DNA of 16,544 bases from a virus (taxonomy: Duplodnaviria > Heunggongvirae > Uroviricota > Caudoviricetes). The stretch lies in IMG/VR virus record IMGVR_UViG_2695420569_000027. The stretch is one strand, 5' to 3'. A model generated the notes under the pieces. The model saw only the letters and a list, made by a program, of their open reading frames with translations. It had not been told where the DNA came from and did no database searches. A program made the translations under genes and the position numbers. Positions 594-15,314 of the stretch are shown here, in pieces; the stretch's first letter is position 1, and each line of letters begins with the position of its first letter.

Positions 594-2053
594 TGAAAAA
601 ATTACTGCGTCTTTTTTTCCCGCTCTCACTGCGGGTACGTTTTCTGTTGGCAACGGCTGCGGTAGTACTGGTGCTTTCGCTTGCCTACGGAATGGTCGCG
701 CTGATCGGTTATAGCGTCAGTTTCGATAAAACTACGTTTCGGCTGTTACGTGGCGAGAGCAATCTGTTCTATACCCTTGCGAAGTGGGAAAACAATAAGT
801 TGCATGTCGAGTTACCCGAAAATATCGACAAGCAAAGCCCCACCATGACGCTAATTTATGATGAGAACGGGCAGCTTTTATGGGCGCAACGTGACGTGCC
901 CTGGCTGATGAAGATGATCCAGCCTGACTGGCTGAAATCGAATGGTTTTCATGAAATTGAAGCGGATGTTAACGATACCAGCCTCTTGCTGAGTGGAGAT
1001 CATTCGATACAGCAACAGTTGCAGGAAGTGCGGGAAGATGATGACGACGCGGAGATGACCCACTCGGTGGCAGTAAACGTCTACCCGGCAACATCGCGGA
1101 TGCCAAAATTAACCATTGTGGTGGTGGATACCATTCCGGTGGAGCTAAAAAGTTCCTATATGGTCTGGAGCTGGTTTATCTATGTGCTCTCAGCCAATCT
1201 GCTGTTAGTGATCCCGCTGCTGTGGGTCGCCGCCTGGTGGAGTTTACGCCCCATCGAAGCCCTGGCAAAAGAAGTCCGCGAACTGGAAGAACATAACCGC
1301 GAATTGCTCAATCCAGCCACAACGCGAGAACTGACCAGTCTGGTACGAAACCTGAACCGATTGTTAAAAAGTGAACGCGAACGTTACGACAAATACCGTA
1401 CGACGCTCACCGACCTGACCCATAGTCTGAAAACGCCACTGGCGGTGCTGCAAAGTACGCTGCGTTCTCTGCGTAGTGAAAAGATGAGCGTCAGTGATGC
1501 TGAGCCGGTAATGCTGGAGCAAATCAGCCGCATTTCACAGCAAATTGGCTACTACCTGCATCGTGCCAGTATGCGCGGCGGGACATTGCTCAGCCGCGAG
1601 CTGCATCCGGTCGCCCCACTGCTGGACAATCTCACCTCAGCGCTGAACAAAGTGTATCAACGCAAAGGGGTCAATATCTCTCTCGATATTTCGCCAGAGA
1701 TCAGCTTTGTCGGTGAGCAGAACGATTTTGTCGAGGTGATGGGCAACGTGCTGGATAATGCCTGTAAATATTGCCTCGAGTTTGTCGAAATTTCTGCAAG
1801 GCAAACCGACGAGCATCTCTATATTGTGGTCGAGGATGATGGCCCCGGTATTCCATTAAGCAAGCGAGAGGTCATTTTCGACCGTGGTCAACGGGTTGAT
1901 ACTTTACGCCCTGGGCAAGGTGTAGGGCTGGCGGTAGCCCGCGAAATCACCGAGCAATATGAGGGTAAAATCGTCGCCGGAGAGAGCATGCTGGGCGGTG
2001 CGCGGATGGAGGTGATTTTTAGTCGCCAGCATTCTGCGCCGAAAGATGAATAA
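593..2053 (+). CDS. phoQ: Sensor histidine kinase PhoQ
   Basis: 486-aa ORF with two transmembrane segments, a periplasmic acidic patch (EDDDDAE), a HAMP region, the H-box ([11 protein letters not shown]) and HATPase N/G boxes ([24 protein letters not shown]). It matches E. coli PhoQ essentially end to end. Confidence 0.97.
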
Positions 2054-2176
2054 ATATGTCCTTTTATCACCACACCAAGACAAGCCATTGATTTAATTAA
2101 ATAATCTTCACTGAAAAAAGTGCCAAAAATCGCAAATTGACTACACCATTAACTACACCGTTCGGTGCACCGTATG

Positions 2177-2202
2177 AAACAACGTGGAACAAATAGACAC
2201 AA
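2177..2202. repeat. Three GAACAA-type hexamers phased at 10 bp (site C), near the island's left end
   Basis: aaacaa at 2177, gaacaa at 2187, acacaa at 2197. The 15-mer aacaacgtggaacaa (2178-2192) is identical to 9642-9656. Confidence 0.35.
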
Positions 2203-2515
2203 GAAATATACAGGCGGATCATCTTTCCAGGGGGAAGCGCACCAATTCATGAGGGGCGTTAATGTCTATATGGGGATCCCCACCTACCGGAATTTTTTTC
2301 CGGTTAAACGTTAATCAGGCTGGTGGGCTTTACCTGTTCGGTAGGTGTTATGATTATCGTAATACCTTTCCCCCAATGGGGTAAAAGCATCAACCGTAAC
2401 GAAAGTCGTTATGGTTGCCACTGATACCCCAAATTTGGGTATCACGAGTAAGCCCCAAAATCTGGGTGTTACTCTTACTACCCAAACTACGGGTAGTTTC
2501 CGTAGTTTCATGGTC

Positions 2516-2535
2516 GAGTTGCAGATCTGCAACTC
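2516..2535. repeat. Perfect 20-bp palindrome GAGTTGCAGATCTGCAACTC
   Basis: Direct reading; the second half is the reverse complement of the first. It sits in a palindrome-dense non-coding stretch (2270-2640). Confidence 0.6.
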
Positions 2536-2789
2536 CCCCATTAACCACAGGCGAATTTCCGCCTTCGGTCATTCCTTAATCATCTGCGTAATCATAATGA
2601 TTATTCAGCAAGCGCAATTTTGCGCTTTGCTTAAAGTTCAGCGAGTTACCGCGCCGACTTCCTCAAATTGAGGTTTCCGAAAATATCAGCGGGTTAGCGA
2701 TTAAGCTGACCATTAATTAAACTGCGAAAATGTCGTAGTTGTGAGGGGTGTAGCCAACCCATTTTTGGGCCGTCGGGAATATCAACCAG

Positions 2790-3071
2790 TTACCGCCGCA
2801 ACCGCTCCGGCTTCTTCCAGTGGTACGTTATTTTCTCCTTCTCCCGATACATCTCCACGCGGCGACGGTAGGCCAGCAACTCAAGAACTCTGGTTCGTAT
2901 GTTGCGCATATCCACGCCATTAAGTTCTATACCATCACGGCGCATCACCTCAGCAACAACACGCGCATAGTTTTCGGCTGTCACGCTGTCCGGCTGCGTG
3001 GCCTGTTCGTCAGCCTGCTGGCTGATTCCGGCAACGCGGCGGATTAATCCCGTTATTTCGGCTTCTGTCAT
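2790..3071 (-). CDS. Hypothetical protein (93 aa) immediately downstream of terL
   Basis: ATG at 3071 with GAGG about 9 nt upstream; 13-nt gap after the terL stop. No family recognised. Confidence 0.4.
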   Translation of the reverse strand: MTEAEITGLIRRVAGISQQADEQATQPDSVTAENYARVVAEVMRRDGIELNGVDMRNIRTRVLELLAYRRRVEMYREKEKITYHWKKPERLRR

Positions 3072-3084
3072 GCTGCTGACCTCA

Positions 3085-4746
3085 TTACACCCCGCTAAAT
3101 TCTTCCAGTTTCTGGCGGTGGCTGTCGCTTATATCAAAAGCAAAATCCTCATGCTCTGCCTGGAATGTACCAAACGCCATCAGCGCCGCCACGCTCGGGT
3201 CTATCTTGTTCGGTGATTTTTTCTTGTTCGGCTTGATATTGGCGTTCGCGTCACTCTGCATCACGACGTTACTCATCGACCAGGACAACACCGGATCGCC
3301 ACGATGCACAATCACCCTGCGGTTAACAAAAACTTCGAACGATTTCGCCGCCGGACTGAATCTGAGGTAGGTTTGCGGGAACGGCTCCACCTCAAAACCT
3401 GCCCCCTGTAATTGCGTTCTGAGATGCGTGGCGTTCCACGTATCAAAGCCCACCAGCCTGATATTAAATTTCTCCGCGTCCTGCATGATGTCATCTCTGA
3501 TCCGGTCGTAATCAATGCAGTCGCCAGGCGTTGTGCGTATCCAGCCTGCTTTAGCCCACTGACGATAGATGGCGCGGTTTTTATTGGCGGGGTTCTGTAG
3601 CTGGAACTCCGGCAGATAATGACGGGAAACCAGCATAATGGTTTTACCTACCGGAAAGGCATAGCACACGCTGGAAATATCGCTTGTGGATGATAAATCC
3701 AGCCCCGCGTAACACTCCTGGCCGTGTAAATCTTCCTCCGTGAACGTTCCGGCACACTCAGCCCATGCGCCGTTACCCATCCACGGGGTAGTCCCCTGAC
3801 ACCAGATATTAAATCGCTTTGTCATCATCTCCACCCACTGCGACGGAATACCCCGCGCTTTCTGGATGGTTGAGGCCAGTTTTTCACGATCCACGGAAAC
3901 ATCAATATTAGGGTTCGCCTTTATCCACATCGCCGGATCATCAACCTCGTTTTCGTCGTCCAGTTCGTAAATCAGTACAAAAATTGAATCGTTAACCTCT
4001 TCGCCGTCCAGGATCTGGCAGCAATAATCATAGTGCTGCTTACAGGCTGAAACGACGTTGCTGCCTGATGTGGTAATGGCAAATAACAGCCCTTCGGGAC
4101 GTGCGCCCATCCCCAGCTCAAGCGCGGAATAAACGCCGTTATCGGGGTGCAAGTGGTATTCGTCCACGATGGAAAGGCTGGGGTTTGTTCCCTCGATGGT
4201 TGCCGCTTTTGCTGCCAGCGGCTTTAACAGGCTGTTGCTTTTCGGGTGTATCACCTTATGCGCCTGAATATTCACCCGCCTGCGTAACGGTCGGGATAAA
4301 AGGCACATCTGACGCGCATCATCAAAGACGATCCGCGCCTGGTCACGGCTCACCGCTGCGGTGTAGATATCCTGCTGACCGTTCTCCATAATCAGAAACC
4401 AGTTAGCCAGAATCGCGGCGGTCGTTGATTTCGCATTTTTGCGCGGCACTTCGATAAAGGCGCTCGTATATTTGCGCCGTCCGGTGGCCTTAACCTTAAA
4501 GCCGAGGATGCACGCAAAGGCGAACTGCTGCCACGGCTCCAGCTCAATGGGTCTGCCACGCATCGGCCCTTTTACGTGCGGGCACACCCTGGAAAAGGCA
4601 ATAAACCGATCCACAACCTCACGATCGAACGTGTAAAGGGGGCTTTTAAGGTCCGAAAAGTACCGTTTAACGGCCTGTTTCAGCCGTTTACAGGCCGGAA
4701 TTTTGCCCGTTTTTACGTCTTCTGCGTACTTATTCCAGGCGGTCAA
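3085..4746 (-). CDS. terL: Terminase large subunit (TerL), HK97-like
   Basis: 553 aa; N-terminal ATPase with a Walker A-like motif (VPRKNAKST) and a C-terminal nuclease region typical of Terminase_1-type TerL. The start is TTG at 4746 with GAGGA 5 nt upstream, overlapping the terS 3' end by 17 nt. Confidence 0.92.
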   Translation of the reverse strand: MTAWNKYAEDVKTGKIPACKRLKQAVKRYFSDLKSPLYTFDREVVDRFIAFSRVCPHVKGPMRGRPIELEPWQQFAFACILGFKVKATGRRKYTSAFIEVPRKNAKSTTAAILANWFLIMENGQQDIYTAAVSRDQARIVFDDARQMCLLSRPLRRRVNIQAHKVIHPKSNSLLKPLAAKAATIEGTNPSLSIVDEYHLHPDNGVYSALELGMGARPEGLLFAITTSGSNVVSACKQHYDYCCQILDGEEVNDSIFVLIYELDDENEVDDPAMWIKANPNIDVSVDREKLASTIQKARGIPSQWVEMMTKRFNIWCQGTTPWMGNGAWAECAGTFTEEDLHGQECYAGLDLSSTSDISSVCYAFPVGKTIMLVSRHYLPEFQLQNPANKNRAIYRQWAKAGWIRTTPGDCIDYDRIRDDIMQDAEKFNIRLVGFDTWNATHLRTQLQGAGFEVEPFPQTYLRFSPAAKSFEVFVNRRVIVHRGDPVLSWSMSNVVMQSDANANIKPNKKKSPNKIDPSVAALMAFGTFQAEHEDFAFDISDSHRQKLEEFSGV

Positions 4747-5086
4747 GCTCGTCCTCTTCTTCTGTTTCCGGTGGATTTTTACGGCGGCTTATCGGGTCAA
4801 AACCGAGCAAGGAGGCCATTTTTATCATCACTCTTTCCGCGTCGGATTTCGCGCTTAATGCGGGGTTTCTGCTCTCTCCGCCCTGACTGTTAACAATGCT
4901 GAACCCGCGCGCCGCAAGGTCTGCGACGGCTTTCCGGTATATCGAGTAATTGACGCAATACAGTTCCAGATTGCTCCAGTCGGCGGGAGTCAGGTCACCC
5001 CGTTCCGCAAGCTGCCGCGATTTTTCCCGCCACTGCTTCACGGCGATATCATCCAGGTAGGCGGGGGCTTTCGGTGGTCTTGCCAT
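4730..5086 (-). CDS. terS: Terminase small subunit (TerS), P27-family-like
   Basis: 118 aa, acidic C-terminus; the position directly upstream of and overlapping terL, and the sequence character, fit phage P27-family small terminases. Confidence 0.8.
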   Translation of the reverse strand: MARPPKAPAYLDDIAVKQWREKSRQLAERGDLTPADWSNLELYCVNYSIYRKAVADLAARGFSIVNSQGGESRNPALSAKSDAERVMIKMASLLGFDPISRRKNPPETEEEDELDRLE

Positions 5087-5089
5087 GCT

Positions 5090-5375
5090 TATTTTTTCGC
5101 CAGATTATTTTTCAAAAAATTCCCGTGCATAAAAATTTGAGGAGGCGGTCGGTGCCCGGCGGGGTCGGGTTTGTCCTGAAAACGCCCCCCACCCCGTCAT
5201 ACAGCCTCATCAGCGATTGCGGAAACATTCCATAACCTCGCGGTCACGGTCGGTTAATCGCTTCGCTGTGATGCGTTCTGCGCATCCTGACGCTTTATCT
5301 TTATGCCCTGTTTCCTGTGTCTTCCATGCGTCACGCTGCCTTATAAGTCCACGGATAAGGCGGTTTTGTTCCCGC
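5090..5375. other. Candidate cos / packaging-initiation region between HNH and terS
   Basis: A 290-bp non-coding gap with a GC-rich core (gaggaggcggtcggtgcccggcggggtcgggtttgtcc, ~5139-5177) flanked by AT-rich tracts. HK97-type cos phages place cos upstream of terS and need the adjacent HNH nuclease. This is inference only. Confidence 0.3.
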
Positions 5376-5816
5376 TCATTCATCAGCGTCATACATCCAG
5401 TTATTGCGGTTAGCGGCCCGTTCTTCCTCTTCACGAAATCCACCTGCGGCACGCTTACTTTTTGTTGCCGGATCAAGCCATTTCGTTTTCTGGTTATGGC
5501 ACGCCTGACACAATGGTTGATGGTTCCATTCGGGCCAGAAGAGAACATCATCACCGCCATTAATCGGGATAATGTGATCCACCACCACGGCGGGCGTATA
5601 TATCCCCTTCTCAAGGCATCGCACGCATAACGGGTTTTTACTCAGATACATGGCGCGGTATTTGTCCCACTGTCTGGAGTACCCACGCGCGCGGCGGTGT
5701 CCTCGTCTGGCATCCTCTGCACGCCATGCCGCCCGCCTGTGCTCCTCACACTTGCCGGACTTCACGCGCCTGTTACAGCCTGGTTCTGTGCATCGTCTTA
5801 ATGGTTGCCACGGCAT
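5376..5816 (-). CDS. HNH endonuclease (phage packaging-associated)
   Basis: 146 aa with Cys-rich zinc-binding motifs (CTEPGC, CVRC, CQAC) and the HNH core (VVVDHIIPINGG ... CHNQKT). The start overlaps the stop of the connector gene (TGATG). Confidence 0.88.
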   Translation of the reverse strand: MPWQPLRRCTEPGCNRRVKSGKCEEHRRAAWRAEDARRGHRRARGYSRQWDKYRAMYLSKNPLCVRCLEKGIYTPAVVVDHIIPINGGDDVLFWPEWNHQPLCQACHNQKTKWLDPATKSKRAAGGFREEEERAANRNNWMYDADE

Positions 5817-14761: not shown

Positions 14762-14950
14762 TTAATGAACTGCCTTGCAGCTATCCTTCCAGGCCAGAAC
14801 CTCGGATAAAGACCAGCCAACGGAACGACCGCCAAGTTTACGACGTGATGGGAATTGTCCGGCCTTTTCCAGGCGGTAGCGACACGTACGGCTAAGGCCG
14901 GTTAGTTTTTCGCATTCTTTTTCACGTATAAACCGATCAGTGCTTAACAC
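14762..14950 (-). CDS. alpA: AlpA-family transcriptional regulator / excisionase-like protein
   Basis: 62 aa; EKLTGLSRTCRYRLEKAGQFPSRRKLGGRSVGWSLSEVLAWK matches the AlpA (Phage_AlpA) winged-helix signature. GTG start with GGGGG upstream. Confidence 0.88.
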   Translation of the reverse strand: MLSTDRFIREKECEKLTGLSRTCRYRLEKAGQFPSRRKLGGRSVGWSLSEVLAWKDSCKAVH

Positions 14951-15222
14951 TATTGCCCCCTTTCGTTTCTTAAAGAGTCATCAGGTGTCTTATTGTGTCG
15001 TATTGTTCCCGCTAGAGTGATGAATGGCAAATACTGAGGATGTATGATTTACAGAAAATGAAAAAGTAAGAATAAAATCTTTTAAATTCATGTTAATACA
15101 AAGGCATAAAATATTGTTCCATGCCTTTTTTCTCGCTCTTTAAAGAGTGATTCGCTAGTGTATAAAAAACCAGTAACACATTAAAAATCAGCTACTTATA
15201 AATCCGTACGCTTTTTCGCCTC

Positions 15223-15275
15223 TTGTTCGTAGTTGTTCCACATTGTTGCTCATTGTTGCACGTTGTATCTGTTCG
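15223..15275. repeat. Five to six TTGTTC-type hexamers at exact 10-bp phasing (site A), in the int-alpA intergenic region
   Basis: ttgttc at 15223 and 15233, ttgttg at 15243 and 15253, ttgtat at 15263, tgttc at 15270. The first 18 bp are the reverse complement of site B with one mismatch. Confidence 0.45.
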
Positions 15276-15314
15276 CATATCCAGTATGCGCATACTGAAA
15301 AAACACGAAAAAAA

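Follow-up and report, generated by a model that had tools for sequence, protein, structure and literature searches.

A non-coding stretch of 123 nt (5087-5209), located between the HNH endonuclease gene and terS of an Escherichia coli cf-PICI, very probably holds the island's own cos site, laid out like the cos of phage HK97. The window, meaning the whole 16,544-nt stretch of DNA that was analysed, is E. coli chromosome beside phoQ (593-2053) carrying a cf-PICI of the EcCIEDL933 type. The cos reading is based on the HNH-terS-terL context of the stretch, the conservation of two blocks within it, the ends of a linear relative that fall 10 nt apart at this point, the 69 nt missing across the same point in the record vB_KppS-Ant, and the register in which the mapped HK97 cos junction matches the region. 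The available text of two preprints states that cf-PICI packaging is cos-type, exclusive and HNH-dependent (10.1101/2022.09.08.507074; 10.1101/2025.02.11.637232), and no mapped cos sequence or termini for cf-PICIs were found in the literature, where the cf-PICI papers were available in part and as preprint versions.

Island identity and packaging genes

The element has the gene content that defines a cf-PICI: an integrase, a replication module, capsid, protease, portal, two head-tail connectors, HNH, terS and terL within approximately 15 kb. Neither tail nor lysis genes are present according to Pfam and the NCBI annotation of an identical E. coli record. The same annotations place the following genes on the minus strand, in an order that matches the one described for Proteobacterial cf-PICIs such as EcCIEDL933 in the available text of bioRxiv 10.1101/2022.09.08.507074.

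9474-8269, minus strand, capsid
8229-7657, minus strand, prohead protease
7655-6444, minus strand, portal
6489-6109, minus strand, head closure protein
6112-5816, minus strand, connector
5376..5816, minus strand, HNH endonuclease, a terminase packaging co-factor (Pfam HNH; phrog_144, E=8e-45)
4730..5086, minus strand, terS, a P27-family small terminase (Pfam Terminase_4, E=1e-23; TIGR01558)
3085..4746, minus strand, terL, large terminase with ATPase and nuclease domains (Pfam TerL_ATPase, TerL_nuclease)

The island's HNH, terS and terL genes sit in a single operon and make up a complete packaging set of the HNH-dependent cos type. No sequence relatives of its TerS were found among solved structures. 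The region from 4700 to 5850 matches E. coli FORC_042 at 100% identity and the O157:H7 copies at 99.4%, and it is present in 533 of 5,426 complete E. coli genomes, in every case on the chromosome. Between phoQ and terL lies approximately 1 kb (2054-3084), mostly without annotation, plus a 93-aa ORF (2790-3071, minus strand) that has a weak relative in the linear contig 3300022664_000095 discussed below. This stretch presumably holds an island end or attachment site.

A small conserved ORF occupies part of the HNH-terS interval

The HNH ORF (5816-5376) and terS (5086-4730), both on the minus strand, are separated by 289 nt (5087-5375). The original prediction described 5090-5375 as the only sizeable non-coding gap in the packaging module. 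It is the sole long interval there, the next being the 39 nt between capsid and protease, but more than half of it belongs to a small conserved gene, and the true intergenic part is 5087-5209.

5210..5392, minus strand, small conserved ORF encoding a basic protein, conserved ATG at 5383 (NCBI annotation; phrog_3173, E=5e-36)

This ORF overlaps the HNH stop and takes up 166 nt of 5090-5375. Its product has 60 aa in the annotation, or 57 aa when counted from the conserved ATG, with a pI of approximately 10; the identical E. coli record labels it hypothetical protein (WP_072127963.1). Of 113 unique relatives, nearly all keep the ORF intact, at lengths of 50, 57 or 58 aa, so that its indels are multiples of three and remain in frame, and the C-terminus RDRE[VL]MECFRNR is invariant among them. 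Column identity is 0.56 at codon position 3, versus 0.65 and 0.69 at positions 1 and 2. No named relatives of the protein were found; its homologues are all unnamed and close. The ORF was seen only in cf-PICI-type elements, being absent from the true phages in the phage collection searched, and the Pasteurella element Pmp8 is without it. It is possible that the protein has an accessory role in packaging.

Base composition also departs in part from what had been proposed, namely a GC-rich core flanked by AT-rich tracts. The core is present, with a GC content of 0.63-0.77 across about 5141-5205, but an AT-rich tract (GC 0.27-0.33, 5085-5140) is found on the terS side only, the opposite side having ordinary coding composition.

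Two non-coding blocks are conserved between HNH and terS

Relatives of the island were drawn from IMG/VR, GTDB genomes, E. coli genomes and phage records, and aligned. Column identities are mean pairwise values from a set of sequences chosen solely by their terS start, the blocks described here being unused for selection. Every aligned copy showed the same layout of segments on the element strand.

5209-5196, minus strand, small-ORF stop followed by approximately 14 variable nt
5195-5173, minus strand, block A, GGGGTGGGGGGCGTTTTCAGGAC, given in the alignment layout as GGGGTGGGGGnnGTTTTCAGGAC
5172-5155, minus strand, spacer of 18 nt, conserved in length and variable in sequence (column identity 0.64)
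5154-5104, minus strand, block B, CACCGACCGCCTCCTCAAATTTTTATGCACGGGAATTTTTTGAAAAATAAT, given in the alignment layout as CACCGnCCGCCnCCTCAAATTTTTnnGCACGGnnATTTTTT(T)GAAAATAA
5087 to about 5104, minus strand, terS leader and ribosome-binding region, about 17-25 variable nt (column identity 0.53)

In the set selected by terS start, block A reaches a column identity of 0.89 and block B one of 0.88, compared to 0.52-0.54 at unconstrained intergenic and third codon positions. Since codon positions 1, 2 and 3 of the HNH gene give 0.81, 0.80 and 0.54, the two non-coding blocks are under stronger constraint than even the first two positions of that gene. Blocks A and B are under strong purifying selection, far beyond chance. 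Each is unique within the window, and neither occurs in the true phage records of the phage collection searched, where matches came from cf-PICI-derived records only. Exact copies of block A occur in seven species-representative genomes, which belong to six genera: Shigella, Erwinia, Kluyvera, Pluralibacter, Klebsiella (two species) and Pectobacterium. The blocks span 5105-5195, between the HNH gene and terS, where the original prediction, by analogy with HK97-like phages, placed a cos site. As for the candidate site itself, 5090-5375, the cos reading is supported, but the site shrinks to approximately 90 of those 286 nt.

In Pasteurella, the cf-PICI-like element Pmp8, with a TerS 66% identical to that of the window, has the same architecture with spacing within 1 nt, so the cos architecture spans Enterobacteriaceae and Pasteurellaceae. 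Pmp8 (OR544139.1, locus 752-880) was deposited as a phage, and its 127-nt HNH-terS gap reads G-run, C-rich stretch, CAAATTTTT and T-tract. A 10-nt inverted repeat in the window (5160-5169 / 5187-5196, 90% complementary), which flanks TTTTCAGGAC and has its downstream arm inside the variable spacer, was considered as a conserved feature and rejected, as it is not kept in relatives.

The stretch is intergenic and directly upstream of terS, with an AT-rich tract adjoining the ribosome-binding site, so it was also considered whether the blocks are a regulatory element for terS/terL (a promoter or operator, a terminator or antiterminator, or an mRNA leader) rather than a packaging site. This is very unlikely. 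The positions nearest the terS start codon are the least conserved, a scan of the coding strand of the gap for sigma-70-like promoters and intrinsic terminators found neither, and a search of the gap against Rfam gave zero matches at E<=1. RNA structure was examined using the consensus fold of 94 gap variants and rejected: the fold pairs only the invariant G-run and C-run and shows zero compensatory changes. A regulatory element would also fail to explain why linear genome ends fall in the gap, as they do in the relatives described next.

DNA ends of relatives fall within the conserved region

IMG/VR contig 3300022664_000095 is a linear metagenomic contig of 15,518 bp containing a complete excised cf-PICI, with a TerS 83% identical to that of the window. 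It runs from terS at 61 through terL, int (3207-4427) and capsid to portal, ending with HNH (14872-15309) and the small ORF. Host genes and a terminal overlap were looked for in this contig and neither was found. The contig starts with CTCAAATTTTTACGCACGG (5' tip CTCAAATTTTT) and ends in ...CAGGACAAAACCCAAGCCGCAAGGCAC, the last bases being GGCAC. In all integrated relatives exactly 10 nt, C[G/A][A/C]CCGCC[T/C]C, lie between GGCAC and CTCAAA. In assemblies, cos ends come to lie at the limits of contigs, and 3' overhangs are lost during end repair whereas 5' overhangs are duplicated (PMC5557969). Since 3' overhangs are trimmed in this way, a unit-length genome minus 10 nt is what would be expected from an element with a 10-nt 3' cos. 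When mapped onto the window, the right end (...GGCAC) extends to 5152, the cohesive sequence occupies 5151-5142, and the left end (CTCAAATTTTT) begins at 5141, which places the terS ATG at +56 from the deduced cut.

5142..5151, minus strand, deduced cohesive-end sequence CGACCGCCTC (from the contig ends of the relative and the HK97 register)
5105..5141, minus strand, left-end conserved block, +1 to +37, CTCAAATTTTTATGCACGGGAATTTTTTGAAAAATAA (column identity 0.90-0.93)

The predicted nicks, mapped in this relative, would thus lie at 5152/5151 on the bottom strand and 5142/5141 on the top strand, and block A occupies -54 to -32 relative to the deduced cut in the top strand, on the last-packaged end.

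A second linear record, vB_KppS-Ant (GenBank LR881103.1), ends in ...GGTTTTCAGGAC and begins 22 nt before terS. It was assembled with SPAdes from a Nextera XT library of K. pneumoniae DSM 30104 lysate DNA, and the 16.5-kb record was published as a filamentous ssDNA phage of a novel genus (PMC8006926). It is a cf-PICI, that of K. pneumoniae DSM 30104 / ATCC 13883 in its particle form. Compared to the chromosome of K. pneumoniae ATCC 13883 (the same strain), vB_KppS-Ant is without 69 nt spanning the deduced cut, consisting of 21 nt of right end, the 10 nt, and 38 nt of left end. Loss of sequence at the tips is to be expected when linear DNA is tagmented. A unit-length genome with fixed ends at the site is thus seen in the relative 3300022664_000095, and the linear vB_KppS-Ant record brackets the same point; for the window element itself such ends are predicted. 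Past terL, vB_KppS-Ant has a 2.3-kb gene (2036-4333) annotated as a tape measure protein, which the E. coli island is without.

Two viral-contig scans and a metagenome scan (81 loci) revealed no additional true ends at the site. One further contig end, in L068, lies 1 nt further on than the end of 3300022664_000095 and may be a provirus-trimming boundary. Apparent ends in L027/L141, L127/L161, L215/L151, L207, L114 and L231 were edges of stored data pieces and were discarded. Locus L338 spans one such edge, and edges of this kind can mimic termini in contig-end evidence. Klebsiella phage P12620-1 was rejected as a locator of the cut, the cf-PICI part of that record starting inside terS and stopping inside the small ORF. 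P12620-1 (GenBank PQ569648.1, L004 / L177) is a 106.5-kb "complete genome" with a whole cf-PICI fused at its 3' end (90.6-106.5 kb); the phage/cf-PICI junction lies inside the start of terS, and the record has the appearance of a chimera, assembled from a phage and a satellite packaged along with it. A 1.6-kb unverified wastewater record, "Escherichia phage ECO95 1-6-1" (GenBank OR845787.1, L003), is the HNH-terS region of a Klebsiella-type cf-PICI with the full cos gap.

The same ends bear on headful packaging, under which the gap would merely hold a pac recognition site. Such sites often lie next to, or inside, small terminase genes. Against this, the unit-length contig 3300022664_000095 has unique ends with zero terminal redundancy. 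HNH-dependent terminases are cos systems (PMC11331095; available text of 10.1101/2022.09.08.507074), and for cf-PICIs, cohesive ends of the particle DNA have been reported, through which concatemers form (available text of bioRxiv 10.1101/2025.02.11.637232). Headful packaging is, in our judgement, extremely improbable for this island.

The region matches the HK97 cos junction in register

The cos of HK97 has mapped ends with a 10-nt 3' overhang. The site that its TerS ring recognises is 15 bp long (+15 to +29) and consists of a C:G step followed by an A/T tract, and TerL acts with the HNH protein gp74 to cut the two strands at staggered positions (PMC11331095). The mapped HK97 junction (-70 to +49) was slid ungapped across 301 offsets of the cf-PICI region. 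For the window, the best match was at offset 0, which is the cut deduced from the contig ends, with 48 of 119 positions matching against a background of 29.6 +/- 5.1. Offset 0 was also best in four diverged relatives (48-54 matches). A gapped local alignment of the gap with the HK97 cos junction scored 17, a value matched by 408 of 1000 dinucleotide shuffles and not significant, so only the ungapped register comparison with HK97 is informative.

HK97 and the window agree in several further respects. In both, cos lies between hnh and terS, and the HNH proteins are homologous (gp74 and the window HNH share 39% identity, E=2e-19). A G-run is shared in position at about -55 to -44; it covers -56 to -43 in HK97 and lies within block A of the cf-PICI. 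Both have a C-rich cohesive region, and both have a GC step and T-tract at about +18 to +29, the T-tract itself at about +23 to +29. The overhang is 10 nt in HK97 (mapped) and 10 nt in the cf-PICI (deduced), and the terS ATG lies at +50 in HK97 versus +56 in the window. The element corresponding in position to the HK97 TerS site, which is also the most conserved one of the left end, is as follows.

5128-5113, minus strand, candidate TerS recognition site, +14 to +29, GCACGGGAATTTTTTG (conserved form GCACGGnnATTTTTT(T)G)

HK97 gp1 itself has no detectable similarity to the window TerS (BLASTP E=2.4) and matches no Pfam family, so the analogy between the TerS sites is one of position and sequence pattern. 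Judged by its sequence, the window site is an HK97 kind of site with a different TerS lineage. Since the TerS families differ, the similar layouts could reflect either shared ancestry of the TerL-HNH-cos part or convergence. The two also differ in spacing, the HNH stop and terS being 368 nt apart in HK97, versus a 123-nt non-coding region preceded by a small extra gene in the window, and in kind, HK97 being a phage and the window element a 15-kb satellite that makes T=4 capsids.

It is conceivable that cos lies in the gap but is cut differently, with nicks elsewhere in the spacer or block B, or with another overhang length or polarity. The ends are defined by a single complete linear contig, the L068 end lies 1 nt further on, and anchoring the nick after CAAA by sequence alone (gapped alignment) shifts the top nick 5 nt downstream. 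The missing 10 nt, however, equal the overhang length of HK97, and the HK97 register peaks exactly at offset 0 in five sequences and scores less at the runner-up offsets. Had the overhang been 5', a terminal duplication would be expected, which contig 3300022664_000095 does not show. We consider different cutting unlikely and favour the nicks given above. Given the behaviour of end repair, and subject to the library method of that source metagenome, the 10-nt overhang would be 3'.

Proposed packaging mechanism and significance

The following model combines the conserved elements with the HK97 system; the assignment of blocks to proteins is inferred from position and conservation. The P27-family TerS of the island would recognise the GC-step and T-tract element at approximately +14 to +29 (5128-5113). 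TerL, aided by the HNH nuclease, would nick at 5152/5151 and 5142/5141, and these staggered nicks would leave 10-nt 3' cohesive ends (CGACCGCCTC). Packaging would then proceed from terS through the island into the small island-made capsid and stop at the next cos. Block A (5195-5173), on the end packaged last, probably helps in termination cutting; by its position and conservation it may act as a termination aid like lambda cosQ, or in positioning the nuclease. The distinct TerS and TerS-site sequence fit the satellite/helper packaging exclusivity reported in the available text of 10.1101/2022.09.08.507074.

A more speculative extension, which on balance we regard as rather doubtful, is that the cf-PICI cos is a three-part signal in which block A (the G-run and TTTTCAGGAC, -54 to -32) is a new termination or nuclease-positioning element, with the phrog_3173 protein acting on it as a satellite-specific packaging accessory. 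If true, such action would help to keep satellite and helper packaging mutually exclusive.

A cos site at the HNH-terS position is where a specialist would expect it, and the present analysis fills in the detail of a known system without altering the overall view of it. What is added is the correction that the "gap" is mostly a gene, candidates at the level of single bases for the cut (5152/5151 and 5142/5141), the TerS site (5113-5128) and the upstream block (5173-5195), and the finding that this upstream G-run block is as conserved as the block on the terminase side and matched in position to HK97. Elements of the cf-PICI type are common. They spread across genera in capsids of their own making, into which nothing but their own DNA is packaged, and the cis signal underlying this exclusivity is their cos site. 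A base-level candidate provides a handle for cos-plasmid transduction tests and for engineered cf-PICI delivery particles, and helps in recognising packaged cf-PICI genomes in viromes. It also allows a P27-family TerS to be compared with the unrelated HK97 TerS on similarly laid-out sites.

Relation to other packaging systems

Besides HK97, the closest known systems include the cf-PICIs EcCIEDL933 and KpCIDSM30104 (Alqurainy et al. preprint 2022; He et al. preprint 2025), which have the same gene order and content as the window. Phage lambda cos (cosQ-cosN-cosB) is also arranged like the window site, with a conserved upstream element on the last-packaged end, then a region in which nicks are made, and on the first-packaged end an element that terminase binds. 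Both lambda cosB and the candidate TerS element of the window adjoin terS. The IHF consensus that would mark a lambda-type 5' cos is absent from the gap, even when one mismatch is allowed, and there is no sign of a lambda-type 12-nt 5' overhang, as contig 3300022664_000095 ends without terminal duplication. The terminase families of lambda and the window differ, and an HNH protein is required in the window system. The cos-type SaPIs and P4 resemble the window element in being satellites that carry a cos for packaging into small capsids. SaPIs and P4, however, carry the cos of their helper, whereas the window cos is matched to the TerS, TerL and HNH that the satellite itself encodes (for the concept, see the available text of 10.1101/2022.09.08.507074).
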